Below are positions 20,147 through 53,544 of a DNA stretch of 64,000 nucleotides, one piece after another (position 1 is the stretch's first letter; each line of letters starts with the position of its first letter). Under the pieces are notes generated by a model that was not told the origin of the DNA, did not search any database, and saw only the letters and a program-made list of their open reading frames with translations. Location: NCBI GenBank assembly GCA_033764095.1, contig JANRJF010000254.1, positions 12,338-76,337 on the forward strand, in the 5' to 3' direction. Origin of the DNA: Deltaproteobacteria bacterium. Its GTDB lineage: Bacteria > Desulfobacterota > Binatia > HRBIN30 > CADEER01. Made by a program: the position numbers and the translations under genes.

Positions 20147-21382
20147 TCAGGGCAGCGGAATCTTGATCTGGTCGCCCTGCTCGCGCGAGCCCTGGAACTG
20201 GACGTTGGCCGAGGTGGTGTAGTAGCCGCCCGCCTCGGAGAACCAGGTCTCGTTCAGGATCGCCAGGATGCCGTTCGCGTCGTAGCCATCGACGTTCGGG
20301 CCGGCCACCGAGCGCAGGCGCGAGGTACCGGTGATCGTGCCCTCGACACCGACCGAGAAGATCGAGAAGGCATCGCCCTCTTCACCCGGGCGGGTGTCGA
20401 TGTCCGACAGCGGCGTCTCCTTGTAGCACTGCACGCTGGTCGAGGTGGAGAAGCGCTGCTCGAACTCGTTGTAGACCAGGAACTGGACCACTGCCGGAGC
20501 GCCGTTGGCGGTCTGGGTCAGGAAGTCGTTGGCGCACGGCACCAGCACCAGGTCGCTGTTCACCTCGCTGACGCCGTTCGCGGTCACCACGTCGGCGCCG
20601 TCGAAGAAGTGGTTCAACGTCAGGATGTTCGGGCAGCCGACGAAGCGGGCCGGATCGACGAATTCGTTGAACACACCGTACTCGGCCTCGGGGCCGCCGA
20701 TGTTGAGCACGTTCGGGTTGGCGTCCTGACGGCCCTCGATCGCCTTGATACCGATCGCGGTGTACTTGCTCGCATCGATACCCTGGCTGTTCTCGGCCGG
20801 GGACTCGACGATCGTCGCCTCGCCCTTGAGGTCGTTGCGGTCGGCCGGCAGCTCGGTGGTGACGTCGACCTGGATGCAGAGCAGCTCACCAGTGAACGGC
20901 ACCTCGGTGACCGGCGGGATGTTGCCCTCGTTGAACTGCGGCGGGCTGCCCTGGCCCGGCGTGCTGGCCAGCGGCAGGCTCGACAGGCCCTCGTTGATCG
21001 ACCACGAGAGCGGCTGGCGCTTGGTCAGCGTCAGGCGGAAGTCGGTCTCCTGCCAGCCCGGGACGCACAGGCCGCCGGTCGGGCAGACGTCGCGGAAGTC
21101 CTGATCCGTGCAGATCGTCGACGGCGCGTTGCTGCAGTGGCCGTTGGTGTTCGTATAGAAGCAGTGCACCTTGGTCAGGAACTCCGAGGTGTTGGTCAGC
21201 TGCACCAGCGTGTCGACGCCGTCGGTCGCGTCGACCTTCAGCAGCGGGTAGTACACGATCGCCGCCGACTCGTTGGTCGTCACACCGGTCGGGTCGATGA
21301 CCCGCGCGCTGGCCGTTTCGACCGCCAGCAGGATCGCGGCACAAGCGAGCGCCCCCCGCCAGATCCCCATCTTCGTGCTCAT
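20147..21382 (-). CDS. Secreted Cys-containing protein, uncharacterised paralog family, P1 (type A)
   Basis: GGAAAGGAGA RBS before the ATG at 21382 and a signal-peptide-like N-terminus (...ETASA/RV). It carries all family motifs (DTLVQLTN, HCFY, WQETDFRLTLTKRQP, PPVTEVPFTGELLCIQ, NDLKGEA, SKYTAI, CPNILTLNHFFDGA, LVPC, VYNEFEQRFSTS..C). Confidence 0.8.
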   Translation of the reverse strand: MSTKMGIWRGALACAAILLAVETASARVIDPTGVTTNESAAIVYYPLLKVDATDGVDTLVQLTNTSEFLTKVHCFYTNTNGHCSNAPSTICTDQDFRDVCPTGGLCVPGWQETDFRLTLTKRQPLSWSINEGLSSLPLASTPGQGSPPQFNEGNIPPVTEVPFTGELLCIQVDVTTELPADRNDLKGEATIVESPAENSQGIDASKYTAIGIKAIEGRQDANPNVLNIGGPEAEYGVFNEFVDPARFVGCPNILTLNHFFDGADVVTANGVSEVNSDLVLVPCANDFLTQTANGAPAVVQFLVYNEFEQRFSTSTSVQCYKETPLSDIDTRPGEEGDAFSIFSVGVEGTITGTSRLRSVAGPNVDGYDANGILAILNETWFSEAGGYYTTSANVQFQGSREQGDQIKIPLP

Positions 21383-21439
21383 CACTAGTCTCCTTTCCTC
21401 ACCCGTGGAGAACACCATTGCTCGCTATCCCAATCCCGC

Positions 21440-22645
21440 TCAGAAGTTCTCGGGGATGGTGATGGTGTCCACCACCGGCCCGCCAGGCAGGTTCACAGTT
21501 GCATCGTAACGGTTGCCGGCCTGCTGCAGGTTCCAGGCAGCGCGCGACACCGTGCCGGTCTCAAGGTAGTGGTACTCTTCGGCGACACCGATCACGCCGC
21601 CGTCGAGGGCGACCGGGCTGATGCGCGTGAAGGCGCTGCCGGTGCCGAGCGTGCCGACCGCGAAGACGCTGTTCTTGCTGCAGAAGCCGGCGGCGCCCTG
21701 GATGCACTGGGCGTCGCTCACGCAGGGGTCGCCGCTCACCGTGCAGGTGCCGGTCGGCGCGTCGATGTCGGCCAGGCGGGTCGTCTCGTAGCACTCAACC
21801 GTGGTGCTGGCGGAGAAGACCTGCTCGAGCTCGTTGACGATCGCGAACTGGACCGTGACCTCGCCCGGGAGCTGGTTCTCGAAGTCCTCCGAGCAGGGCA
21901 CCAGCGTCAGGTAGGTGCGGATCGGGCAGTCGCCGTCGGTGCAGTTCGCCGAGTTGAACTCCTCGACCACCGGGTCGGGCGTGCCGTCGACGAAGTGGTT
22001 CAGGTAGAGCTGGTTCGGGCACGAGTTGTACTCGCCGTCATGTTCCGGCGTGTTGTCGAGCAGGAGCTCGTTGGCCGGGGCGTCGCCGGCCAGATCCGGG
22101 TTGGCCAGGATGGCGATCGCGTTGTGCTTGCTGACGTCGCCCGAGCTGGCGCGAATCACCGTCTCGCCCTTGAGGTTGTTGCCGCCGAACGGCGTGCCCG
22201 AGGCGTCGATCTGGACGCACTTGAGCTCGCCATCGAAGCCCGGCGGAACCGGCGGAATGGCGCCCGGATCGATACCGGCGCCGCCCGTGCCGAACATGTC
22301 GGCCGGGTTCACCGGACGGCCCGCGCTGACCACCCAGTGGGTCGGCTGCTGGCGGGTCAGCCAGATGGTGAAATCGGTGACCTGCCAGAGCGGGTTGCCG
22401 AAGAAGTCGGGCGCGCCGTTCACGTAGAAGCAGTGCGCGTGCACCATGTTATTGCTGGTGTTCGTGACCTGGATGATGGTGTCGCGGCCCAGCCCGCCGA
22501 TGTCATACACCACCTTCGGAAACACCAGCACCGATCCGCTGACGTCCGTCGAAACCTCTGCCCGCGTAACCGAGGCGAACGCCAAGGCGCTCACCAGCAC
22601 TCCGCAGAGGCTCCACACACAGCGCATCCCCAGTGCCTTGCTCAT
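21440..22645 (-). CDS. Secreted Cys-containing protein, uncharacterised paralog family, P2 (type B)
   Basis: GAAAGGAGA RBS, ATG at 22645, and a signal peptide ending VTRA/EV. Close paralog of P5 (VLVFPKVV, DTIIQVTNT, AHCFYVNGA, PLWQVTDF..LTRQQPTHW, GELKCVQ, LTLVPCSEDF, NELEQVFS). Confidence 0.8.
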   Translation of the reverse strand: MSKALGMRCVWSLCGVLVSALAFASVTRAEVSTDVSGSVLVFPKVVYDIGGLGRDTIIQVTNTSNNMVHAHCFYVNGAPDFFGNPLWQVTDFTIWLTRQQPTHWVVSAGRPVNPADMFGTGGAGIDPGAIPPVPPGFDGELKCVQIDASGTPFGGNNLKGETVIRASSGDVSKHNAIAILANPDLAGDAPANELLLDNTPEHDGEYNSCPNQLYLNHFVDGTPDPVVEEFNSANCTDGDCPIRTYLTLVPCSEDFENQLPGEVTVQFAIVNELEQVFSASTTVECYETTRLADIDAPTGTCTVSGDPCVSDAQCIQGAAGFCSKNSVFAVGTLGTGSAFTRISPVALDGGVIGVAEEYHYLETGTVSRAAWNLQQAGNRYDATVNLPGGPVVDTITIPENF

Positions 22646-22803
22646 CACCCGTCTCCTTTCGTGGCGGAGAAGAATCCTCGCTCTCCCATCCCGCCTCTCA
22701 ACCGTGTCCGACTATCTTGAGTGTCGACATTCGCGCAAACACAACGGCAGGCCGTTCTCCGGCCGGTCGAAAGCTGCCTCCAGTTACTTGAGACCCCTTC
22801 AGT

Positions 22804-37709: not shown

Positions 37710-39992
37710 GTGTCGGAAGCATCCCCCGCGCCGGGCGGCGCACCCAGACCGCGCGTCGGCGCGGTCGCGCTGCTGGCGCTGGCCCTGGCCTGTGGCGCGG
37801 TCGGCCAGTGGCACTTCGAGAGTGCGCAACCGTGGCGCGTGCAGCAGTGGGAGCGCTTCGTCGCGCAGCGCACGGCGGGGGTGATCTGGTATGGCGCGAT
37901 GGCGATCGCCGCCGCGCTGTTCGTCTGGCGGGCGCGCGACTGGCCGCCGCCGGTGGCCGGCCGCCGTCTGCGCTGGGCGGCGGGGACCGCGCTGCTGCTG
38001 CTCGTCGTCGCCGCCGGCTGGCTGCGTTTCCATCGCCTGCACGAGCTGCCCCCGGGGCTCTGGGTGGACGAGGCGCTGAACGGCGTCCAGGCGGTACAGA
38101 TCGCCGCCAGCGGTCGGCCGCTGGCGGCGTTGCCGCCCGAGGACCTGCGCACCGGGTTGGGGGCCGGCTTCGTCGACCTCGCCGGCCTCGCCTTCGCGCT
38201 GTTCGACTTCGATGACGGTCCCTGGGGCGTTCGCGCCGTCGCGGCGGTGATCGGCATCGCCGCGGTCGCCGCCGCCAGCGCGCTCGCCTGGGTGTGGTTC
38301 GGGCCGCTGGCCGCGCTCGCTGCCGGCGGATGGCTGACGATCTCGCAGTGGCACCTCAACTACTCGCGTTGGGGCGAGATGCCGCTGATGTCATCGCTGG
38401 TCGAGACGCTGATCGCGCTCGGCGTCACCGTCGCCCTGCGGGCGCGCGGCCGGCGCGCCTGGGCGGCATGGCTGTTCGCCGGCGTCATGACCGGTCTCGG
38501 CGTCTACACCTACCAGACCTTCCGACTCTTCATCGTCCTCGCCGGCGGCGCCGCCGGGTTGTGTGCATGGCGCCGGCGCGCCGTGTTGGTGCCGCATCGG
38601 CGGCCGCTGTTGGCGGCCCTGCTGCTGGCGGCGGTGGTGACACTGCCGATGCTGCGCTACGCGCTCAGCGCGCCGGAGCAGTTCGGCGAGCGCGCCATGG
38701 GCACGCTGATCCTCGGGCGCGAGGACTGGCGCGCGCAGCTCGCCGATTCACTGCCGCGCTCATTGCTCGCCTTCCAACTGGTCGGCGACGACAATCCGCG
38801 CCACAACCTGCCTTTCGCACCGTTGCTGACGCCGATCCCGGCGGTGCTGGCGGGGCTCGGCTTGGCGCTCTGCCTGGCGCGCGCGCGGCATCCGCCGTGC
38901 GGCGCGACCGCGCTCTGGTTCGCCATCGCGCTGGTGCCTGCCGTCATCACGCTGGAGGCGCCGCATGCCTCGCGCCTGCTCGACGCGATCGTGCCGCTGG
39001 CCCTGATGATCGGCGTCGCCGTGCAGGCGCTGATCGCCGCGCTGCAGGTCCTGTTGCCGGCCCGCCTGGCGGCGCCCGCCGCGTTCGCCGCGGCCGGCCT
39101 GGCCGCGGCGCTGACCGCGCGCGCCGAATGGCACCAGTATTTTGTCGCGCGCGAAGCCCTGCCGGCGTTCACCGACGCGTTCTTTCCCTACGAGTCGGCG
39201 CCGGGCCGCTATCTCGCGCGCCATGCGCCGGACGCGACCGTGTACCTCGACCCGGTCACCTACTGGCAGCCGGCGACCTTCTTCGTCGCACATCGCTATC
39301 TCGAGACGCGGCCCAACGACGTGCGTGAGCTGTTCCTGGCGCACGACTTCCCGCCGCGCGCGCCGCTGACCCGCGACGCGCTCTATCTGCTGCCGCGGCC
39401 CTACGCGACGTTCGCCGCGGTGCTCGAGTCGCTGTCGCCCGACACCGCCTGCGAGACCGTCCGCGATCGCTTCGCGCGCGTCGACATGATCGCCTGTCGC
39501 GTGCCGCGCGACGCGATGAACGACGCCATCGCGCGCGGGTGGCGTCCGCCCTACGGCCTGCGCGGGCGCTTCTACCGCGGCGGCGAGAACGGCGCGCTGC
39601 TCGCCGAGACGCCGTTGCCCTATGCGCTGGCCGAGTATTCGCTCGATCGACCGCCGGTCGGTCACTTCGATCTCGCCGTGTGGGAGGGCACCATCGACCT
39701 GCCGGTCGACGGCGAGTACTTCTTCCGCCTCAACCCCGACACGACGACGCTGGAGATCGACGGCCAGCGCATCCTGTCGCACCACGGCGACGCCGCGTTC
39801 GGCGGCGCCAACGAGGGCCGCGCCCGGCTGCGCGCCGGGCGCCGGCCGATCCGCATCACGCTGGCGCCGGGAACCGGCGGTCCGAACTTTCTCTGGTTCT
39901 ACTGGCAGCCGCCCGGCGGCGAGGGCGATTGGGTGCCTGCCACCGTGTTGCGGCCGGCGGCGGACCGGTCGGCAGCCTCGCCTCCGTCTTGA
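37710..39992 (+). CDS. GT-C (GT39/PMT_2, ArnT-like) glycosyltransferase fused to a C-terminal PA14 domain
   Basis: More than 10 TM segments with a first-loop acidic motif (LWVDEALNG). The C-terminal 140 or so aa match the PA14 pattern (GLRGRFYRGG...AVWEGTIDLPVDGEYFFRL...LEIDGQRIL). Confidence 0.7.
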   Translation: MSEASPAPGGAPRPRVGAVALLALALACGAVGQWHFESAQPWRVQQWERFVAQRTAGVIWYGAMAIAAALFVWRARDWPPPVAGRRLRWAAGTALLLLVVAAGWLRFHRLHELPPGLWVDEALNGVQAVQIAASGRPLAALPPEDLRTGLGAGFVDLAGLAFALFDFDDGPWGVRAVAAVIGIAAVAAASALAWVWFGPLAALAAGGWLTISQWHLNYSRWGEMPLMSSLVETLIALGVTVALRARGRRAWAAWLFAGVMTGLGVYTYQTFRLFIVLAGGAAGLCAWRRRAVLVPHRRPLLAALLLAAVVTLPMLRYALSAPEQFGERAMGTLILGREDWRAQLADSLPRSLLAFQLVGDDNPRHNLPFAPLLTPIPAVLAGLGLALCLARARHPPCGATALWFAIALVPAVITLEAPHASRLLDAIVPLALMIGVAVQALIAALQVLLPARLAAPAAFAAAGLAAALTARAEWHQYFVAREALPAFTDAFFPYESAPGRYLARHAPDATVYLDPVTYWQPATFFVAHRYLETRPNDVRELFLAHDFPPRAPLTRDALYLLPRPYATFAAVLESLSPDTACETVRDRFARVDMIACRVPRDAMNDAIARGWRPPYGLRGRFYRGGENGALLAETPLPYALAEYSLDRPPVGHFDLAVWEGTIDLPVDGEYFFRLNPDTTTLEIDGQRILSHHGDAAFGGANEGRARLRAGRRPIRITLAPGTGGPNFLWFYWQPPGGEGDWVPATVLRPAADRSAASPPS

Positions 39993-42205: not shown

Positions 42206-42394
42206 TCAGCGGCGCAGGTGGCGGTACTGGTCGGACTTTTCGCGACGCAGCGCGGAGAGACGGTTGTCGGCGTCACGTTGGATGCGCGACTTGCGATGCA
42301 GGAGGGCGTAGAGCACCAAGGCGCCGACGGCGACCCCCACCCCGACCATCGGGTGGGTGGACACTAAATCGACGAACGGCTTGAGTTGGTCCAT
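42206..42394 (-). CDS. Small single-pass membrane protein (hypothetical)
   Basis: 62 aa with one TM helix (MVGVGVAVGALVLYALL) and a basic tail. GC3-rich frame. Confidence 0.35.
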   Translation of the reverse strand: MDQLKPFVDLVSTHPMVGVGVAVGALVLYALLHRKSRIQRDADNRLSALRREKSDQYRHLRR

Positions 42395-42595
42395 GCGCGT
42401 CCCCTGCGAAGGCAGAGGCTAGCGCCGTGTTCCGCGTGCTCAACCGGGAAATTCCGAAATCGACCAGTCTGCAGCAAAGCGTCGCATCGCTGCATCGCTT
42501 GCGTCCGAGATGGACGATATGCGGCCGCGCACGCGCCATTCTGTGCGTTGCAAAGCGAGCAAGGGTGTCGCATATCCTCGCAACACTTCATCTCC

Positions 42596-45169
42596 ATGGG
42601 GCGTGGTGACGCGACGGGCGCTGACCCGAGCAGGGGCACGGGCGACGCGGTGAGCGCCAGTCGATCTCGGCCTGTGTTGCTGCGCCGGCTGGCGCTGGCG
42701 GTCCTGGTGGCCGGTTTGTCGAGCTTCGCCTCCGGCCTCGCGTCCGCTCAGGAGGTGCGCGGCGACGCCAACTGTGACGGAGTGGTGAGCCAGGCCGACC
42801 TGCCGGCGCTCAGCTCCGCCCTGTTCCTCGGTAGCGTCTGTGCGACCGCCGACGTCAACCAGGACGGGCGACTGTCGGCCGCCGACCTGGTGGCGCTGAT
42901 CCAAGTGCTGGCCGCGTCGCCCACGCCCAGCCCGAGCGCGACCGCCAGTGCCACGCCGAGCGGGGTGGCAACAGCGACCGCGACGCAGAGTCCCACGTCG
43001 CCTTTGCCGAGTGCCACCGCCAGCGCGACCGCGAGTGCCACCGGGGTCGCCACCGCGACCGCGACATCGCTGGCGACCGCGACGGCGACCGCGACGCGCA
43101 CTGCCGAGGCGACGGCGACCTCGATGGCAGCAACGGCGACGGCGACCTCGGTGGCCGCAACGGCGACGGCGACCTCGGTGGCAACCACAACCGCCAGCGA
43201 CACGCCGACGCCGCTAGCCACCGACACCGGCACGCTCGTCGCCAGCCCGACGCCGACCGCAACCGCCAGCGTGCCGACCGAAACGCCGCTCGAGGCGACC
43301 GCCACCCCGGAGCGCAGTCCCACCGCCACATCCGATCCCAGTCCGACCGAGACCGGGACGCTGCACCCGACCGCTACCGCGACCTCGACGGCGAGTGCAA
43401 CCGGATCGGCGACGCCGACCGAAGTGGTGGCGCCGACGAGCACGGCGACCGGCTCGCCGAGCGCGACCGCGCCGCCGCCGTCGATGACACACACCGCCTC
43501 ACCGACCAACTCGGCGCTTCCGAGCGCCAGTCCGACCGAGACCGTCAGTCCGACGCGAACGCAGAGTGCGACCCGCACCGCGAGCGCGACGCGGACGCCG
43601 ACCGAAACGCGCACGCCCACCGTCACCCGCACCGGCACACTGCCGGCGACCGACACTCCCACCGCGACCGGCTCCCCGACGCGTACGGAGACGCGCACGG
43701 CGACGGTGACGCGTAGCGCGACGCCGGCGTCCACGCTGACGCCGACCAGGACCGCGACCGAAACGCGCACGCCGACCGAGCCGGCATCCCCGACCCGCAC
43801 GCACACGGTTCCGGCGAACGCTACCGAGACGCGCACCTCGACGCCGACCCGCACCGAGACCGTCACCCGAACCGAAACCGAGACGCGCACGCCGGTGCCG
43901 CCGACGGCGACGCGCACGCCGAGCTTCACCGGCACCGTCACCCGTACGGCCACCTCGGCCCCGTCGGCGAGCCCGACGCGCACTGAGACGGCCTTGCCGG
44001 CCAGCGTCACGGCGACCCCGACACTGACCCCATCGCGAACGGCGACTGCCAGCTTCACTGGTACGCAGACCCGCACCGAGACGCCGACGCGCACCCCGAC
44101 CGCGACGCGCACCGATACGCCGCTGCCGCCGCCTACCGCCACCGGCACGCCGCTGCCGTCAGAAACCGCGACCCGCACCGGGACGGCGACGCGCACCGAT
44201 TCGCCCAGCCGCACGCCGACTCGCACCGCGACGTTGACGCCCACCGGCACAGAGACGCGAACGCTGACGCCAACGCGCACCATCACGCCGACGCCGAGCG
44301 CGACCAACACGTTGACGCCGATCTTCTCCTTGACGCCGACGCTGACCCGCACGCTGACGCCGACCGGCACGCCGACGCGCACGCAGACCAACTCCCCGAC
44401 GCCGACCTTCAGCTTCACGTTCGTGCCGACGCGCACGTCGACGATCACACGGACGCCGACCATCACCCGCACCGCGACGCGAACCTCGACGATCACGCCC
44501 ACGCCGACCGTCACCCGGACGCCGACACCGACTTCGGCCCTGGCCGGTCCGCGGGTCAGCTTCGCCGGCGCGATCTCACAGGATGGTTGTCAGTCGTGCT
44601 GCCAGTTTATTTGTCAGCTGACGCCAACCCCGACACCCATCATCGAGAATGGCCGCGAGGTCTTCGTCCGCGACGTCGGCCAGTTCCTCTTCGTCGTCGA
44701 AGGCCAGCGCGGACCCTCCAACCAGAACCCCGGTCTCAACGTGAACCCCGACGGAACCGATCGCGGCGACCTGCAGATCCTGGTCAGCCGCTCGACCGGC
44801 GCCATCGACGATCCGGCCGGATTCGGCAGCGCCGCCGTCTGCGACATGGGCCCGCCGCCGCTGCCATTCGGCGGCGTGCCGGGCGTCAACCCGCCGGTGT
44901 TCCTCCCCGGCGACGCGATCACCCATGCCATTCAAGACATGGAGTGTCGTTTCACCGCGATTCCACTCAGCGCGATCAGCGGTGCCTGCACGCGCAAGTC
45001 GAACGGCGACTTTGGATTCATCAGCAACCAGACGCGTACACAATACTGCTACCAGGTGCCGATGACCGGCGCCTTCCAGGTCGGCGACACGCTGGTGTCG
45101 GTGCAGTTGCGCGACGTCGGCGGCAACATCGGGCCGACCAAGGAATTCATCATCCGCGTCCTGCCCTGA
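42596..45169 (+). CDS. TR-A: secreted giant protein with dockerin-like Ca-loops, about 540 aa of Thr-rich period-2 low complexity, and a conserved unnamed C-terminal domain
   Basis: One uninterrupted frame. It contains a signal peptide (LALAVLVAGLSSFASGLASAQE), GDANCDGVVSQADL...ADVNQDGRLSAADLVALI, long T-x-T-x tracts, and a C-terminal domain shared with TR-B. An alternative GTG start lies at 42651. Confidence 0.8.
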   Translation: MGRGDATGADPSRGTGDAVSASRSRPVLLRRLALAVLVAGLSSFASGLASAQEVRGDANCDGVVSQADLPALSSALFLGSVCATADVNQDGRLSAADLVALIQVLAASPTPSPSATASATPSGVATATATQSPTSPLPSATASATASATGVATATATSLATATATATRTAEATATSMAATATATSVAATATATSVATTTASDTPTPLATDTGTLVASPTPTATASVPTETPLEATATPERSPTATSDPSPTETGTLHPTATATSTASATGSATPTEVVAPTSTATGSPSATAPPPSMTHTASPTNSALPSASPTETVSPTRTQSATRTASATRTPTETRTPTVTRTGTLPATDTPTATGSPTRTETRTATVTRSATPASTLTPTRTATETRTPTEPASPTRTHTVPANATETRTSTPTRTETVTRTETETRTPVPPTATRTPSFTGTVTRTATSAPSASPTRTETALPASVTATPTLTPSRTATASFTGTQTRTETPTRTPTATRTDTPLPPPTATGTPLPSETATRTGTATRTDSPSRTPTRTATLTPTGTETRTLTPTRTITPTPSATNTLTPIFSLTPTLTRTLTPTGTPTRTQTNSPTPTFSFTFVPTRTSTITRTPTITRTATRTSTITPTPTVTRTPTPTSALAGPRVSFAGAISQDGCQSCCQFICQLTPTPTPIIENGREVFVRDVGQFLFVVEGQRGPSNQNPGLNVNPDGTDRGDLQILVSRSTGAIDDPAGFGSAAVCDMGPPPLPFGGVPGVNPPVFLPGDAITHAIQDMECRFTAIPLSAISGACTRKSNGDFGFISNQTRTQYCYQVPMTGAFQVGDTLVSVQLRDVGGNIGPTKEFIIRVLP

Positions 45170-45504: not shown

Positions 45505-45578
45505 CCGTCACGCGTTGAAGGGGCGAGGTTCGGACCCCGGTAACGCATATGGGTGCAGTTACCGAAAGGAGGCGTGCA

Positions 45579-47063
45579 ATGCGAGTGCAGAAGCGAAGCC
45601 CGTGGCTGACTGGCCTGGGAGTGGTGCTGACGGCCATGGCGCTGTGGGGAGCGCAGGCTCGAGCGGAAGTCTCCTCCGACAAGCCTGGGTCGGTGGTGAT
45701 GTGGCCAAAGGTGATTGCGGATGGAACCCGCGACACCCTCATCACGCTGACCAACACGCTCAACTTTACTGCGTACGCGCATTGCGAGTACGTCCAGGCG
45801 CTCGGCCTGTGTTCGATCACGGGAGATTTCTGTGATCCACAGGCCACTGTCGATGGTTCGCCGGGCATCTGTCCGGCAGTCGCCGGCAACGTCTGTGTCG
45901 ATCAGTGGCAGACGGCGAACTTCGACGTCGTCCTGACCCGCCAGCAGCCGACGATCTGGCGCGTGTCGACCGGCCGTATTTACGATCCGTTCCTGCTGAC
46001 CGACGGCGTCTGCCAGGACATCCCGGGCGTTCCGCTGCGGCAGTCCTGCCCCGGTCTCTTCCTGATCGGCCAGGTCCCGCCGGCGCCGGATCAGCCGTTC
46101 CGCGGCGAGCTGCGCTGCTTCCAGGTCGCTTCCGACGGCACGCCGCTGCCTGCCAACGGCCTGAAGGGCGAGGCGGTGATCGAGACGCTGCCGACTACCG
46201 ATCTGCCGGTGAACACGCAGATCAGCAAGTACAACTCGATCAACGTCGAAGGTCTCGATGCTCCGTCGATCGACGGCATCCTGCGCCTGAACGACATCGA
46301 GTACAGCGCCTGTCCGGAGGCGGTCGAGGTTACGCACTACGCGCAGGGCGCCAACGTCCTGGACACCCCGGCCGGCTTCACGGGGTGCAGCGGAACCGGT
46401 TGCCCGGTCAACACGGAGATCACCCTGATCCCGTGCCGCGCCGACTTCACCAACGAGGTCGGTGCCCGCTTCGCGACGGACATTCGCTACACCAACGAGT
46501 TCGAGCAGACCCTGTCGGTCGAGCCGACGTTCGATTGCTGGGCGAACTTCGACCTGCGCGACCTGCCTTTCGCACCCGCCTCGCTGAGCGGCACCACGTT
46601 CCAGCGCACCCGCCTGATTCCGACTGGCTCGGGTAACTGCATCTCCGGCGATACCTCGCTCAATGGTGAGGAGAACGGCCCCTGCGCCGACGACGCCGAC
46701 TGCGGCACCGGCGGCGTCTGCGGTCCGGTGACCGGCATCCTCGCGGTGGTTGAAGAGTTCTACAGCTCTGACGCCTCCCTGGCCGTCCCGCCGACCGCCC
46801 CGACTGGAACCGCGGCATCGAACGGCTACTCGGTTGATTTCAACCGCGACAACAACCTGGGGCGCCCCGGCCACTGCCGCGGCGATCTGACGGAGGAGTG
46901 CACCACGGACGCCGATTGCGGGACCGGCCTGTGCCGAATCAACACGACGGTCTCCTGCATGAGCGACGCGACGTGCGCTGCGCTCGATCCGACTGACTTC
47001 TGCGATCGCTGCATGAACGACGAGATCGCGACCGAGTCCGGTCCGATCGTCATCGTCCAGTGA
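45579..47063 (+). CDS. Secreted Cys-rich protein, uncharacterised paralog family, P3 (divergent, with C-terminal Cys-module extension)
   Basis: GAAAGGAGG RBS and a signal peptide ending AQARA/EV. Family motifs MWPKVI, DTLITLTNT, AHCEYV, WQTANFDVVLTRQQP, PFRGELRCFQ, NGLKGEAVI, SKYNSI, LIPCRADF, NEFEQTLS. The C-terminus has extra C..DADCGTG.C modules. Confidence 0.8.
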   Translation: MRVQKRSPWLTGLGVVLTAMALWGAQARAEVSSDKPGSVVMWPKVIADGTRDTLITLTNTLNFTAYAHCEYVQALGLCSITGDFCDPQATVDGSPGICPAVAGNVCVDQWQTANFDVVLTRQQPTIWRVSTGRIYDPFLLTDGVCQDIPGVPLRQSCPGLFLIGQVPPAPDQPFRGELRCFQVASDGTPLPANGLKGEAVIETLPTTDLPVNTQISKYNSINVEGLDAPSIDGILRLNDIEYSACPEAVEVTHYAQGANVLDTPAGFTGCSGTGCPVNTEITLIPCRADFTNEVGARFATDIRYTNEFEQTLSVEPTFDCWANFDLRDLPFAPASLSGTTFQRTRLIPTGSGNCISGDTSLNGEENGPCADDADCGTGGVCGPVTGILAVVEEFYSSDASLAVPPTAPTGTAASNGYSVDFNRDNNLGRPGHCRGDLTEECTTDADCGTGLCRINTTVSCMSDATCAALDPTDFCDRCMNDEIATESGPIVIVQ

Positions 47064-47098
47064 TGCGCCGGCGTCGAGACGAGAGAAGGAGAAGGGCG

Positions 47099-48247
47099 AT
47101 GCTGAGCATGAAGAAGGTTCTCCTGGGAGTGGCGGCGCTCACCGGCCTGGTCCTGTCGGCGCCGGCGCAGGCGGAGACGTTCTCCGATACGGGCGCGGCG
47201 GTGCTGGTCTGGCCGACCATCATCGTGTCCGAGGATTACGACACGATCGTCACGATGACCAACCAGGCCGCGGTGCCAAGCGCGGCTCACTGCTTCTACG
47301 TCAATGCCAACAACCGCTGCTCGAACACCGGCGAAGTCTGTGAGGACTCGTCGGAATGTGAGGACGGCGGATTCTTCGGCGCCTGCCTGCCGGGCTGGAT
47401 CGAGATCAACTTCGACGTCCTGCTCACCCGCGATCAGCCGCTCGGCTGGAGCGCCGCCGACGGCCTGAGTGGTTCGGGACTGCCGTGCCCGGGCGGCATC
47501 GGCAGCATCTGCAGCGGCAACGGTGGCACGCGCGTTCCGCCGGTCGGCGAAGTTCCCTTCGTCGGCGAGCTCAAGTGCATCCAGTCGGATCCGATCACCC
47601 GCCTGCCGTTCCCGTGCAACGATGCAAATCCGCTGAACCGCTGCCGCAACGACCTCGAGGGTGGCGCGACGATCACGGGTTTCAATCCCAACAACGGCGA
47701 GATCGATCCGGAGCGCTACAACGCGGTCGGCCTCCGCTCCGCTGGCCAGAACAACGGTGACAGCCTGCTGGTCATCGGTGGACCGCCGGCACAGGCCGAG
47801 TACCAGCCCTGCTCCGAGGTCCTGGTGTTCAATCACATGTTCGACGGGGCGGTCGATCCGGTGAATCCGGACAATGAATTCGCCTCCACGCTCAGCCTGG
47901 TTCCCTGCACGGAGAACTTCCTGACCCAGTCGGTTCCCCGCGTGACGGCACAGTTCCTGGTCTACAATGAATTCGAGCAGCGCTTCTCGACCAGCCGCCT
48001 GGTCAACTGCCTGCTGACCAGCGACATCTCCAACATCGACACGACGCAGTCCGACCGCTCGATCTTCAGTGCGGCAGTCGCCGGCACAGTGGCCGGCCAG
48101 ACGCGCATCACCGGAGTTGGTGGCGGCCTGATCGGCAATGCGGTTCTGTTTACGTTCAACGATTCACTGCTGGCCGCCTCGGGTGCTGGCTACAACCTGA
48201 ATCAGTTTGCGGACCGCGTCGATCCGGACTTCATCAGCATTCCGTGA
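47099..48247 (+). CDS. Secreted Cys-containing protein, uncharacterised paralog family, P4 (type A)
   Basis: GAGAAGGAGAAGG RBS and a signal peptide ending PAQA/ET. Motifs DTIVTMTN, AHCFYVN, GWIEINFDVLLTRDQP, PFVGELKCIQ, LVPCTENF, LVYNEFEQRFSTS. Confidence 0.8.
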   Translation: MLSMKKVLLGVAALTGLVLSAPAQAETFSDTGAAVLVWPTIIVSEDYDTIVTMTNQAAVPSAAHCFYVNANNRCSNTGEVCEDSSECEDGGFFGACLPGWIEINFDVLLTRDQPLGWSAADGLSGSGLPCPGGIGSICSGNGGTRVPPVGEVPFVGELKCIQSDPITRLPFPCNDANPLNRCRNDLEGGATITGFNPNNGEIDPERYNAVGLRSAGQNNGDSLLVIGGPPAQAEYQPCSEVLVFNHMFDGAVDPVNPDNEFASTLSLVPCTENFLTQSVPRVTAQFLVYNEFEQRFSTSRLVNCLLTSDISNIDTTQSDRSIFSAAVAGTVAGQTRITGVGGGLIGNAVLFTFNDSLLAASGAGYNLNQFADRVDPDFISIP

Positions 48248-48291
48248 CGGGTCGCATCTGTAGCGCGTGGCTTCCTGAAGGAGGAGAACCC

Positions 48292-49386
48292 ATGAGTACG
48301 GTTAAGGGACTGCGAGCCGGCGTGATGGCGAGCATCCTCGCGGGGGTGGCGCTGGCGGCCGGAATCGCCCAGGCGCAGAACTTCTCGACCGAGCAGCCCG
48401 GTTCGATTCTGATCTTTCCGAAGGTGGTGAACACCTCGGACACGATCATCCAGATCACCAATACCGACAACAGCGTCGCATACGCGCACTGCTTCTACGT
48501 CAACGGCGCGTCGGTGAACGGACAGCCGCTGTGGCAGGTGACGGACTTCGAGCTCACCCTGACGCGGCAGCAGCCTACGCACTGGGCGGCGAGCACCGGC
48601 CGTGCCGTCAATCCGCAGGACGGCGTCCCGGGTATCGACCCGGGTCTGGTTCCGCCGGTCGCGCCGGGATTCACCGGCTACCTCACCTGTGTCGAAACCC
48701 TGGCTGACGGCACTCCGACCAGCGGCAACCATCTCATCGGTGTTGCCACGGTGGGTGAGATCAACGGCCTCGGCGGTGGTGCGAACATCGTGAGCAAGTA
48801 CAACGCGATCGCCATCCCGGGTTGCAACGGTGATGATGGTCCGTGCGGCGACACCGGAGAGTCGAACGACGGCAACAACATCCTCGAGCTAAACAACGTC
48901 GAGTATGCCCGTTGCCCCGGCGGCGTGTACCTGAACTTCCAGTCGGAGGGCGGTCCGGATCCGGCCCTGGCGGGAGCCGGGAATGTCGCCTCGACGGTCA
49001 GCACGGATCTCACCTTGGTGCCCTGCGGGATCGACTTCGAGAACCTCATCCCCGAGTCGACGACGCTGAGCGCCGAGATCCGGGACGAGTTCGAGAACCG
49101 CACCTCGATCACGGCGATCGACATCGATTGCTTCTTCGACGAGCCCCTGAGCTCACCGCTCTTCTCGGGCCAGTTCGTGCTGCCAACGGCTTTCGGATCG
49201 GCGATTCTTCGTCCGCAGGCAGGGACGGGGAACGTCCCGGCGGTTGGCGTGGCCAACGTGCTTCGTACGGCGGATGACGGTACGCAGGACACGGCGGCGA
49301 CGAACCTGCACTTCTGCACGGACCAGGATCCGCCGGCGCTGTGTGTGCCGGTCGACTCCGAGATCCGGCTGCCGACCTTCCAGTGA
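48292..49386 (+). CDS. Secreted Cys-containing protein, uncharacterised paralog family, P5 (type B)
   Basis: GAAGGAGGAG RBS and a signal peptide ending IAQA/QN. Close paralog of P2 (ILIFPKVV, DTIIQITNT, AHCFYVNGA, PLWQVTDFELTLTRQQPTHW, LTLVPCGIDF). Confidence 0.8.
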   Translation: MSTVKGLRAGVMASILAGVALAAGIAQAQNFSTEQPGSILIFPKVVNTSDTIIQITNTDNSVAYAHCFYVNGASVNGQPLWQVTDFELTLTRQQPTHWAASTGRAVNPQDGVPGIDPGLVPPVAPGFTGYLTCVETLADGTPTSGNHLIGVATVGEINGLGGGANIVSKYNAIAIPGCNGDDGPCGDTGESNDGNNILELNNVEYARCPGGVYLNFQSEGGPDPALAGAGNVASTVSTDLTLVPCGIDFENLIPESTTLSAEIRDEFENRTSITAIDIDCFFDEPLSSPLFSGQFVLPTAFGSAILRPQAGTGNVPAVGVANVLRTADDGTQDTAATNLHFCTDQDPPALCVPVDSEIRLPTFQ

Positions 49387-49440
49387 GTTGGGACGGTGGG
49401 TGACGAGATGAAGCGCGCAGGCAGGGAAAGGAGTCACGAG

Positions 49441-50712
49441 ATGCGTACGGTCAATGCCAAGGGGAGCGCCACGCGGTTGTCCGCGGCGGTTCTGGCGGCA
49501 TCGCTGATCCTCGTCGGCTGGTCGGCTGGCGCGTCGGCGCAGGTGTCCCGGTCGGATCGGGCTGCCGGCTACGTCGTGCTGCCGAAAGTCATCGTTCACA
49601 CGACGGGCGGTGATCCGGCAGTGCCGGTGGGCGGCGTCGCCACCGACACGCTGATTCAGATGACGAACACGAACCAGGCGTCGGCGATCACGGTCGACTG
49701 CTGGTGGGTGAACGCCAACCGCCACTGCGGATCGGACGCTGGTCCTATCTGCCAGACCAATGCCGACTGCGCTCCTGGGCTCCAGTGCGTGCAGGGGTGG
49801 GCGGTGCTCGACTTCCAGGTGACGCTGTCGCCAGGGCAGCCGATCGGCTTCCTGGCTTCGACGGAGCTCAATCCGCTCCCGTGCGATCCGACCTTCCCGG
49901 GACCGGGATGCCTCGGCAACGCGGGCGGCGCGGTCCGTCCGGTGCCGGAGGATCCGTTCCAGGGTGAGCTGAAGTGCGTCCAGGTGGACGAGAATGACAT
50001 TCCGGTGGCGGAGAACGACCTCAAGATCGAGGCGACCGTCATCTCGACGACCGCCGGGGCGCCGGGGACTGCAACGACAGCAGCGTCCTACAACGGCGTG
50101 GGTTTCGAGGCCCTGGAAGAGGGCACGGGCGGGGTCGACGACCCGCTGTGCCTGGGTGGGCTGCCGATGGGAACGCCCCAGGGCGTGGAGTGCGCCGCCG
50201 AGTATGCACCGTGCCCGAACGTGCTCCACGTGGAGCACTTCTTCGACGGCGCCGTGACGGAGTTGGGCAGCACGGTGACCACCGACCTGACGCTGGTGCC
50301 GTGCAGTGAGAACCTGGGAGAGCCGGCTGAGCAACTCGACCTCCGCGTCACGGCGCAGATGCTGGTGTACAACGAGTTCGAGCAGCGGTTCTCGACCAAC
50401 AGTGTCGTGAATTGCTACCAGGCGACGCAGCTGTCGGACATCGACACGCAGCCGGGACCGGCAGGTAACCCGTACTCGATCTTCTCGGTTGGTGTTGAAG
50501 GAACGATCACGGGTCAGACGCGCATTCGCGGTGTCAGCGGTCCGCAGGGTCCGCTGGGTTACGGTCTGATCGGCGTGGCCTGCGAGGATCACAGCGTGGG
50601 CGGTGGCTCGGTGGTTGCCACCACGGCGTTCAACCTGCAGTCGGTTGGCTTCCGCGAGGGCGGCGACGCAGTGTACCGGACGCAGTTCCCGCAGCAGCCT
50701 GTGGTTCCGTGA
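49441..50712 (+). CDS. Secreted Cys-containing protein, uncharacterised paralog family, P6 (type A)
   Basis: GGGAAAGGAG RBS and a signal peptide ending ASAQ/V. Close paralog of P1 (DTLIQMTNT, PFQGELKCVQ, CPNVLHVEHFFDGA, LTLVPCSENL, LVYNEFEQRFSTN, SIFSVGVEGTITGQTRIRGV). Confidence 0.8.
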   Translation: MRTVNAKGSATRLSAAVLAASLILVGWSAGASAQVSRSDRAAGYVVLPKVIVHTTGGDPAVPVGGVATDTLIQMTNTNQASAITVDCWWVNANRHCGSDAGPICQTNADCAPGLQCVQGWAVLDFQVTLSPGQPIGFLASTELNPLPCDPTFPGPGCLGNAGGAVRPVPEDPFQGELKCVQVDENDIPVAENDLKIEATVISTTAGAPGTATTAASYNGVGFEALEEGTGGVDDPLCLGGLPMGTPQGVECAAEYAPCPNVLHVEHFFDGAVTELGSTVTTDLTLVPCSENLGEPAEQLDLRVTAQMLVYNEFEQRFSTNSVVNCYQATQLSDIDTQPGPAGNPYSIFSVGVEGTITGQTRIRGVSGPQGPLGYGLIGVACEDHSVGGGSVVATTAFNLQSVGFREGGDAVYRTQFPQQPVVP

Positions 50713-50829: not shown

Positions 50830-51216
50830 ATGGCAGCGAAGCGAATCCTGGTCGTCGAGGACAACTTGGACAATCGTCGTATCCTCGTCTACCGCCTCAA
50901 GCGGATCGGCGAGTTCGAGATCGTCGAAGCGAGCAACGGCGAGGAGGCGCTCACCATCGTGCAGACCCCACCGCCGCCCGATCTGATCTTCATGGACCTG
51001 AAAATGCCGGTCATGGATGGATGGGAGGCGACCAAGAAGATCCGTCAGCTCGAGTTCGGGAAGGGCATTCCGATCATCGCGTTGACCGCGCAGGCGATGG
51101 CGGGGGACGAGCAGAAGGCACTGGCTGCCGGCTGCGACGACTACCTGGCGAAACCGATCGTCGATCTCAGTGTCGTGCGTACGAAGATGGAGCGTCTGCT
51201 GAGCCGAGTGCACTGA
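50830..51216 (+). CDS. Single-domain response regulator (CheY-like receiver)
   Basis: ILVVEDN, phospho-acceptor context LIFMDLKMPVMDG, ALTA, and DDYLAKP. No output domain. Confidence 0.88.
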   Translation: MAAKRILVVEDNLDNRRILVYRLKRIGEFEIVEASNGEEALTIVQTPPPPDLIFMDLKMPVMDGWEATKKIRQLEFGKGIPIIALTAQAMAGDEQKALAAGCDDYLAKPIVDLSVVRTKMERLLSRVH

Positions 51217-51312
51217 GGCGAGCCGCAGGGCGCGACTGGGCGGGGGCAGGAGCGGCGAGCGGGAGTTGGCTCGCGTGACAAGTTGTCCGGCGCTGACGGG
51301 CCGGATGACGCG

Positions 51313-53544
51313 ATGAGGAGATCTCGGCAGGCAGCGTCGGGTCGTTGGGCGTGGGTTGCGATCCCGCTGCTGGCGATCTGTGTGGGTGGCGGCCCGCTGC
51401 AAGCGGCCAGCGCGCTGTGCGAGGCGGGCGATGCGCGGACGCGGGTCGGGCTGGTGGTCGATGCCCTGTTCAGCGGCGGAGCCTGCGACGCGAACGGCGA
51501 CGGCGGGACCTCGGCGGCCGACCTGACCGCGGCGTGGAGTGAGCCGGCAGCGACGCCGACGGCCACGCCGAGCGCCACAGGGCCGGCGACACTCACCGCG
51601 ACGGCGACTGCCAGCGGGACGAGCCTGCCGGCGACGCCCGAGGCCACTGCCACGCCGACCGCTCCGTCGCCAAGTCCGACCGCGGTCGCGCAGGTGACCG
51701 CCAGCCGGACGGTGACCGCGACGCCCGTGCCGAGCGCGACGGCGAGCGCAACGCCTACCCTGGACGCCAGCCCCGGAGCGTCCGCTTCGGCGACGCCGAC
51801 GGCAACCGAGACCCCGACCGCCGCGGCAACCGAAACGGCGACCCTGGTGGATGCGGAGACTGAGACGCCGACCGCGCTGCCGACCGGAACGGCCAGCAGC
51901 ACGCTGACTCCAACCGTCGGCGCGCCGAGCGCGAGCCCCACGGCCGTGCCTACTGCAACCGTTGAAGCGACGCCGGTCGACTCCGCGACGGCAACCCCAA
52001 CGCGGACGGCGACCCATACCGCAACGGCCATCCCGACGCTGACAGCGACCCCGACTCGATCGCCAAGCTCAACCGCCAGCGCTTCTCCGACGCGAACCGC
52101 GACACGAACAGTGAGCGCGTCCCCCAGTGCGAGTGCGACGCGGACCGGCAGCGCGACGCGCACGCGCACGCCGACAACTGGTCCCACCGCCACGGCGTCT
52201 CAGAGCCCGACGCGGACCGCCACGGCGGTTGCCACGCTCACACCGACCCGCACGATCACCGGCACGCGGCCGGCAACGCCCACCCGCACCGCCACTGCCG
52301 CCGCGTCCCCGACCCGCAGCAGCACTCCCACCCGCACTCACAGCCCGACTCTCGCGGCGAGCGCCACGCGCACCTCGACGGTGACCCGGACCAGCAGCCC
52401 GACACGGACCGTCACCCAGGCCGCCAGCCACACACCGACGCGCAGCCCTTCTCCTACACGCACTGCGACCGCACCGATCGGTCTGCCGGGCACCGCAACG
52501 CAGACCCCGACCCGTAGCGCGTCGGTGACGCGGACGGCGACCTGGACGCGCACGCCAAGCGCCGCGCACTCCGCCTCGCCGACGACCACGGCCACGCGTA
52601 CGGGGACCGCCACCCGCACGCTGACCTACACCGCTGGCCCGTCGCCGACCCGTACCGGCACGGCGACCGGTACGGCAACCCTCGCCCCGAGCTCGACGCG
52701 TACGCCCACGCCAACGCCGACCGCTTCGGTGACCGCTACACACGTCCCCACCGGAACGCCGACGCACCCGCCGACCGCGTCGCCCACCGTCACGCCGACG
52801 CCAACCGCGTCAGCCAGCCGCACGCGCACGGGCACGCGAACGCCGACGCCGACGCGCACCGGCAGCGCGACCCAGACCGCCACCGCCACCGGCACGGCGA
52901 CCATCACGCGGACGCCAACGCGCACCGCCACCGGCACCCCGGCGCCCACCAACACTCCGCGGACAATCGGCGGCGAGATCACCGCCTTTGGCGTGGCGCG
53001 CGCCGACGGCCAACCGGTGATGACCATCGGTCCGCAGGACGACGGCTACCTGACGTTCGTCCGCCCGCCGAGCGGCTTCATCATCTACATCGAAGCAAAG
53101 CGCGGTCTCAGCGGACTGGCCGTGGGCTCGGAGACGTTTGCCTCGGACCCCAAGGATCCGAACGTGCTGCCCGATCTGCAGGTGCTCGTGTCACGGCCGC
53201 TCGGCAACGGCAGCACTGCGGTGTGCGACATCTCGCCGCCTGTCGGCGGCGTTCCGGCCGTCGTCCCACCGACGTTCGGCGGCTCGCAGGCGGTCAGCAA
53301 CGCGATCAACGATTTCTCGTGCCGCTTCGACGCGCGTGGCAGCTCGATGCAGGCCTGCACGCGCGACGGCTTTTCCGCCTACACGTTCACCGAGCCGAGC
53401 TCGACCATCCAGTTCTGCACCAGCCCCGGTATCGGCACCGAGCTCGCCTTCCCGCTCGGGGACACCATCGTCACCGCGCGTGTGCGCGACGTTGCCGGCC
53501 AGCCCGGCCACGCAAAGAGCATCGCGATCCGCGTGCTCGAGTGA
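51313..53544 (+). CDS. TR-B: secreted giant protein with one dockerin-like Ca-loop, about 470 aa of Thr-rich period-2 low complexity, and the same conserved C-terminal domain as TR-A
   Basis: Signal peptide ([23 protein letters not shown]), [14 protein letters not shown], and long T-x-T-x tracts. The C-terminal domain aligns with TR-A ([45 protein letters not shown]). Confidence 0.8.

Follow-up and report, generated by a model that had tools for sequence, protein, structure and literature searches.

Two putatively secreted proteins, TR-A and TR-B, are encoded on a 64,000-nucleotide stretch of DNA from a Deltaproteobacteria bacterium (GTDB lineage Bacteria; Desulfobacterota; Binatia; HRBIN30; CADEER01; contig JANRJF010000254.1, positions 12,338 to 76,337), and this whole stretch is called the window here. 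We found that both proteins end in a copy of the same domain, which we named DOM, and that DOM is a real, autonomous and uncatalogued domain specific to one order of the Binatia. Judged from their sequences, the two regions appear to be anciently diverged paralogous copies of one autonomous domain family. Counts for the own genome refer to the assembly that contains the window (6.8 Mb, 70% G+C, 491 contigs).

The similarity between the two C-terminal regions is, by alignment, far beyond chance. BLASTP aligned them with 69/179 identities (39%, E = 3e-28), and a MAFFT alignment of the cores gave 43% identity with 70 invariant columns, which bears out the first-pass annotation of the window in describing two C-termini that share sequence in collinear order. 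All nine motif blocks that it had listed were found in both proteins, namely F[LI][FI][VY][VI]E[GA][QK]RG, DLQ[IV]LVSR, AVCD, GGVP.V.PP.F and A[IV]..AI.D..CRF, followed by ACTR, Q[YF]C, GDT[LI]V…RDV.G and IRVL. The four conserved cysteines it had noticed are indeed common to both copies, but the total in TR-A is eight. The region it had delimited is real, but its start in TR-A, 44536, lies one base before a codon boundary (44537 in frame), and the ends given for both regions take in the stop codon. An alignment of the 16 own-genome copies of DOM showed that the domain begins with a conserved first strand, GPxITyFGxAxAD, and ends with VVRV; because of this first strand, we place the domain start at 44543 in TR-A and 52966 in TR-B. 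The two genes and their parts are as follows.

42596..45169, + strand: TR-A gene, starting at ATG 42596 or GTG 42650 (open reading frame list and start-region sequence)
42650..42748, + strand: TR-A signal-peptide-like segment (…LALAVLVAGLSSFASGLASA/QE), inferred from reading the translation
42764..42910, + strand: TR-A type I dockerin with two DxNxDG loops (Pfam Dockerin_1)
42911..44542, + strand: TR-A stalk, 544 amino acids (computed composition T 36%, A 15%, P 14%, S 10%)
44543..45166, + strand: TR-A copy of DOM, 208 amino acids, AGPRVSF…IRVLP (BLASTP against TR-B; 333.7 bits with the family hidden Markov model, HMM)
44579-44638, + strand: insertion in the TR-A copy of DOM, QDGCQSCCQFICQLTPTPTP, with C-x2-CC-x3-C and then TPTPTP after the first strand (alignment of own-genome copies)
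51313..53544, + strand: TR-B gene, ATG 51313 being the likely start (open reading frame 51283-53544)
51487-51525, + strand: TR-B dockerin-like loop, single (read from the sequence)
51538-52965, + strand: TR-B stalk, 476 amino acids (computed composition T 33%, A 19%, P 14%)
52966..53541, + strand: TR-B copy of DOM, 192 amino acids, IGGEITAF…IRVLE (family HMM 306.9 bits)

The four additional cysteines of TR-A all sit in the C-x2-CC-x3-C insertion, which is a subfamily-specific feature. Among the 16 own-genome copies it occurs only in TR-A and in the protein encoded at C276:5197-7051, and it was found in 13 of 149 representative DOM proteins. The C276:5197-7051 protein also contains the closest paralog of the TR-A domain (47% identity), with its parts in the opposite order to those of TR-A: signal peptide, DOM, Pro/Thr-rich (PT) linker, an unassigned region and Dockerin_1. 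The TR-B copy has orthologs in L009-L015 at 56-69% identity as compared to 39% identity to the TR-A copy, indicating that the TR-A and TR-B paralogs are old.

DOM belongs to a sizeable family with a narrow distribution. A profile search of the own genome revealed 16 copies in 13 open reading frames, some of them in tandem within one protein; a signal-like segment opens each of the 13 frames, and a lipobox is found in three. When a library of 1.84 billion representative proteins was searched exhaustively with HMMER, 543 clusters reached E <= 1e-3, of which 462 reached E <= 1e-10. The highest-ranking match, P0004 (E 5e-158), is no true relative. It is a 6010-residue, eukaryote-like protein with EGF and 44 HYR repeats, and we rejected it because its score is no more than the sum over 44 repeats, each of which matches the final ~40 positions of the profile at 12.9 bits; summed repeat scores should accordingly be read with caution. 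Within the own order, DOM was present in 52/52 genomes with 7-20 copies each, whereas in the other orders of the same class it was found in 0/132 genomes at E <= 1e-3. In a sample of the phylum (301 genomes), DOM was detected only in the own genome and in one genome of the same order. The related public records carry titles of Candidatus Binatia or coarse submitter labels. Ten DOM-bearing related genomes were checked for the PAR family, a second secreted family encoded beside the TR genes that is described below; nine carry it and are therefore probably of the same lineage.

The first-pass annotation could put no name to the domain, and our searches led to the same result, with no significant match to DOM in Pfam, NCBIfam, PDB sequences or Foldseek. 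Pfam gave no match for the two window copies at E <= 1, none for any of the 16 own-genome copies at E <= 10, and nothing over DOM in full-length TR-A, TR-B and 36 full-length relatives. NCBIfam gave no match to DOM, and a profile search of all PDB sequences yielded three chance-level matches alone (E about 1). The name given to 115 relatives in a large protein collection is "hypothetical protein", apart from a few entered as "dockerin type I repeat-containing protein" or "ELWxxDGT repeat protein"; their Pfam marks are at most Dockerin, PPC or EF-hand, never over DOM.

DOM, of about 190 amino acids, is confidently predicted to fold as a beta-sandwich. AlphaFold2 models were built on the 16-copy alignment. 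The model of the TR-B copy reached a mean predicted local distance difference test score (pLDDT) of 91.5 and a predicted template modelling score (pTM) of 0.89, with about nine strands and one 11-residue helix. The model of the TR-A copy (pLDDT 80.8, pTM 0.81) shows its secondary-structure elements in the same order, and its pLDDT falls below 50 in the two subfamily insertions alone; the C-x2-CC-x3-C insertion occupies model residues 13-32, with pLDDT < 50 over 17-23. Foldseek found nothing at E <= 1e-3 in the PDB with both models or in BFVD with the TR-B model. The best matches were generic Ig-like sandwiches with template modelling (TM) scores of 0.26-0.37.

Among known families, only the hyalin repeat (HYR, PF02494), which serves as an Ig-like adhesion module outside the cell, shows a link to DOM, and this through the C-terminal hairpin. 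The second half of an HYR repeat can be aligned to the final ~45 residues of DOM, with the signature C…FPxGDTxVxxxxRDxxGNxG…VVRV; the HYR counterpart, C…F.xG.T.V.x.A.D..GN…F.V.V, makes up the final hairpin of its sandwich. With hhalign, the 209-sequence DOM profile matched HYR repeats weakly (probability 50%, E 1.7e-4, 42 columns), and a reverse search with HYR found 20 of 209 DOM copies at E < 0.01, always at their C-terminal end. The 44 HYR repeats of the rejected P0004 protein meet the end of the DOM profile in the same way. Both modules are extracellular, Cys-containing beta-sandwiches that occur in tandem. However, HYR is ~80 amino acids long while DOM covers 189-225 profile positions as one folding unit (pTM 0.89), and the first ~145 residues of DOM, including the most conserved loops and the helix, are without an HYR counterpart. 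Pfam HYR gave no match in the 16 own copies at E <= 10, and its gathering score of 21.7 bits was not reached, whereas true HYR repeats from P0004 scored 40.6-89.6 bits in the same scan. The likeness is thus a weak one, a lead rather than a membership.

Conservation was computed over 209 DOM copies, with residues numbered as in the TR-B model. E43, G80 and G95 are fully conserved (100%), followed by D116 (99%), Q149 (98%), T167 (97%) and D175 (95%). Of the 40 positions conserved at >= 80%, 17 fall in residues 69-104 (PDLQ…PLGNGS…VCD…GGVP…PP.F), a region that has no regular secondary structure in the TR-B model. The strongest conservation is therefore in the loops and not in the core strands, which argues for a functional surface. 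All four cysteines are kept in 207/209 copies, and in the one copy from which two are missing, the missing pair is C3 and C4, suggesting C1-C2 and C3-C4 pairing. DOM probably contains two disulfides, VCD-CRF (C1-C2) and ACT-Q[YF]C (C3-C4), the pairing being taken from this single case of co-loss.

The position of the conserved residues bears on the possibility that DOM is a passive Ig-like structural module, a spacer or stabiliser of envelope proteins without a ligand of its own. Such a role would suit a beta-sandwich with an HYR-like C-terminal hairpin that co-occurs with the spacer-type sandwiches PKD, PPC and CarboxypepD_reg. We nevertheless consider it improbable, in that the long loops and not the core are best conserved, PT tracts of ~480-540 amino acids already act as spacers, and some proteins consist of little more than a lipobox or signal peptide and one DOM, such as own-genome C105 (306 amino acids).

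The invariant carboxylates raise another possibility, namely that DOM is a small extracellular enzyme using E43 and D116, as some beta-sandwich hydrolases do. The near-complete conservation of E43, D116 and Q149 would be consistent with catalysis, and the cargo borne by dockerins in cellulosomes is usually enzymatic. Yet no likeness to enzyme families was found in Pfam, NCBIfam or the PDB, and the two to four tandem copies seen in DOM proteins are unusual for a catalytic domain; we regard an enzyme as highly unlikely. Pfam also found no enzyme domain elsewhere in the DOM proteins (36 full-length relatives), where the only partner domains are Dockerin_1, PPC, PKD and CarboxypepD_reg.

The architectures of the 149 representative proteins suggest how DOM may be displayed. 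Dockerin-like loops are present in 56/149, PT-rich linkers of at least 30 amino acids in 91/149 and a lipobox-like start in 23/149, while 53/149 contain 2-4 copies of DOM. In most of the proteins (108/149) a DOM copy lies no more than 8 residues from the C-terminus, as in TR-A and TR-B, which both end exactly with DOM, and the remaining 41/149 do not end with DOM. TR-A itself (open reading frame 42386-45169, 927 amino acids from the frame start; G+C content at third codon positions 0.85) runs from signal peptide through dockerin and Thr-rich stalk to the C-terminal DOM. Its Dockerin_1 match covers residues 126-175 of the 927-residue frame with a score of 26.6 bits (E 6.7e-6), the cut-off being 22.9; the protein thus has the duplicated calcium-binding loop-helix segment of a type I dockerin (PF00404) above 22.9 bits, and this segment was also recovered in the dockerin scan of the own genome as C254:55098-55247. 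TR-B follows the same order with one dockerin-like loop in place of the dockerin, and the Pfam scan of TR-B gave no dockerin match. One further architecture was seen in L039 (labelled uncultured Gammaproteobacteria, 70% G+C), a dockerin-DOM-PT-DOM protein with an apparent frame shift within the PT tract.

These architectures speak to the two roles that the first-pass annotation had left side by side, a functional head or a cell-wall or outer-membrane anchoring module. A head is the better fit because the tether, a dockerin or a lipobox, is N-terminal and DOM is distal to it. An anchor or C-terminal sorting module would explain why so many of the proteins stop at or within a few residues of DOM, but it is at odds with the tandem copies, with the 41 proteins in which DOM is not terminal, and with copies that directly follow a signal peptide. 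Furthermore, a dockerin or lipobox is already present in the same proteins, and we found neither a hydrophobic or amphipathic terminal signal nor an NCBIfam match to a sorting domain (T9SS CTD, PEP-CTERM, LPXTG-type). An anchoring or sorting function is, in our estimate, very improbable.

The dockerin of TR-A recalls the cellulosome, and so do the PT-rich linkers that join modules and the coexistence of dockerins and cohesins in the own genome. The cargo differs, however, since it is an uncatalogued domain and not a glycoside hydrolase or a carbohydrate-binding module (CBM), and the dockerin stands at the N-terminus. Neither sequence nor fold makes DOM a cohesin or a dockerin. The cohesin family (PF00963) gave no Pfam match to DOM, and no cohesin was among the best 50 listed Foldseek matches in the PDB with either model. 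Pfam gave no CBM match to DOM in the window copies, the 16 own copies or the 36 full-length relatives. No paper on dockerins or cohesins in Binatia or Binatota turned up in the literature searched.

Given these dockerins, DOM might instead be a non-cohesin receptor for them, in which case multi-DOM dockerin proteins would be scaffoldin-like adaptors. Tandem modules, PT linkers and a single dockerin do mimic adaptor scaffoldins, and the own genome has 33-44 Dockerin_1 matches (33 over the cut-off) against only 4-7 cohesin matches (4 over the cut-off). However, classical cohesin-like modules are present in the own genome, in genes other than the DOM genes, and could receive the dockerins. Dockerin_1 is also expanded to 10-25 matches per genome in several families of the class, including sister families without any DOM. 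Since dockerin expansions occur without DOM, and since DOM resembles cohesins in neither sequence nor fold, it is unlikely to be a general dockerin receptor.

We therefore return to the head. In our judgement, the chances are slightly better than even that DOM serves as a binding head, carried by a long Thr-rich stalk that is probably glycosylated and is tethered by a dockerin or a lipid. In this model, the TR proteins would be exported by a Sec signal peptide. At the N-terminus, a type I dockerin would plug into cohesin-bearing envelope proteins, a role that the lipid of a lipoprotein would take in paralogs. The Thr/Pro/Ala-rich stalk of 480-540 amino acids, probably O-glycosylated, would then hold DOM away from the tether, and a conserved partner would probably be recognised through the long, highly conserved loop region 69-104. 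Among possible partners, the PAR proteins, whose genes lie between those of TR-A and TR-B, or some common component of the envelope would be the most plausible.

The PAR genes and two other genes near TR-A and TR-B are listed below.

45549-47063, 47060-48247, 48244-49386 and 49396-50712, + strand: four tandem PAR genes, a secreted family between TR-A and TR-B
20147-21418 and 21440-22648, - strand: two further PAR genes of the window
50830..51216, + strand: orphan single-domain response regulator between the fourth PAR gene and TR-B (Pfam Response_reg, E 3.4e-25)
37710-39992, + strand: glycosyltransferase of GT-C/PMT_2-like type, 2.6 kb upstream of TR-A (PA14 matched weakly)

PAR, with about 20 copies in the own genome, matched no family in Pfam or NCBIfam. 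In the class sample its phyletic profile is identical to that of DOM, with PAR in 19/19 genomes of the order and 0/132 elsewhere. The two families also meet within single proteins. The own-genome reading frame C41 is a PAR-dockerin-DOM fusion, as confirmed by both profile HMMs, and P0034, P0122 and P0146 are apparently DOM-PAR fusions as well, their PAR-like N-termini having been judged by eye. In addition, fusion to a PAR gene or a distance of less than 1 kb to one was seen for 4/13 DOM genes of the own genome. For comparison, regions within 5 kb of a PAR gene make up 1.5% of that genome. A further step, which we put forward tentatively and hold to be doubtful, is that DOM and PAR form an undescribed, order-specific surface apparatus in which DOM heads on glycosylated stalks, attached to the envelope by dockerins or lipid, would specifically capture or arrange the beta-sandwich proteins of the PAR family, or be captured or arranged by them. 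If true, the DOM-PAR assembly would be a lineage-defining extracellular structure without a counterpart in cultured bacteria.

A head on a stalk has a parallel in the serine-rich-repeat (SRR) adhesins, whose Siglec+Unique regions (SrpA, Hsa and GspB-type; PDB 5eq4, 6x3k, 6efi) were recurrent top Foldseek matches of both models (probability 0.8-0.94). These adhesins likewise combine a beta-sandwich binding head of ~200 amino acids with a very long, glycosylatable stalk rich in hydroxy-amino acids. SRR adhesins, which belong to Gram-positives, carry the head towards the N-terminus and are anchored by an LPXTG motif at the C-terminus. The TR proteins differ in that the tether, dockerin or lipid, is N-terminal, the head is C-terminal and the lineage is presumably diderm.

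Several observations weigh against a binding head that works together with PAR. The similarity to the Siglec+Unique regions is not significant (E 1.9e-3 to 2e-2, TM 0.26-0.32, 10-15% identity, root-mean-square deviation 8-9 Å), and Foldseek found no structural relative with a known ligand. The conserved aromatic residues of DOM are four Phe (38, 104, 141 and 162) with no conserved Trp or Tyr, and a conserved aromatic platform such as carbohydrate-binding modules typically have is probably lacking. Most own DOM genes (9/13) and most retrieved loci have no PAR neighbour, and one DOM-bearing genome of the ten checked, that of L039, gave no PAR match. As to gene order, the arrangement of TR-A, four PAR genes, response regulator and TR-B is conserved in L009-L014, G313, G314 and G309, but it is part of a syntenic block of > 20 kb in family-level relatives that includes the GT-C/PMT_2-PA14 glycosyltransferase, a metallophosphoesterase, DprA and an XRE regulator. 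Because synteny extends over > 20 kb of such ordinary genes, the gene order is weak evidence of a functional link. Finally, Binatia are presumably diderm, and the TR proteins would also have to cross an outer membrane.

Order-wide presence, the lack of a database entry and co-distribution with PAR make DOM well suited for curation as a new domain family, and it could serve to mark a surface system peculiar to this lineage. Its confident model and clear boundaries make it directly testable. DOM is no new principle; beta-sandwich heads on long stalks of hydroxy-amino acids and non-cellulosomal dockerin proteins are already known. Binatia are widespread in soils and sediments and have, to our knowledge, no cultured representative.

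The most conserved DOM genes in G308, G314 and G309 encode a ~300-residue lipoprotein and a ~620-residue two-DOM dockerin protein. The neighbours of these genes gave no functional hint, and the recognisable gene that they share looks like a housekeeping gene, of Mrp/ApbC type by eye. The GT-C/PMT_2-like gene upstream of TR-A keeps its position in G313, G314 and G309 at 52-61% identity, and its product is a candidate O-glycosyltransferase for the Thr-rich stalks. In the syntenic family-level relatives, the response regulator is 93-96% identical, compared with 56-69% for the TR domains and 52-61% for the glycosyltransferase.

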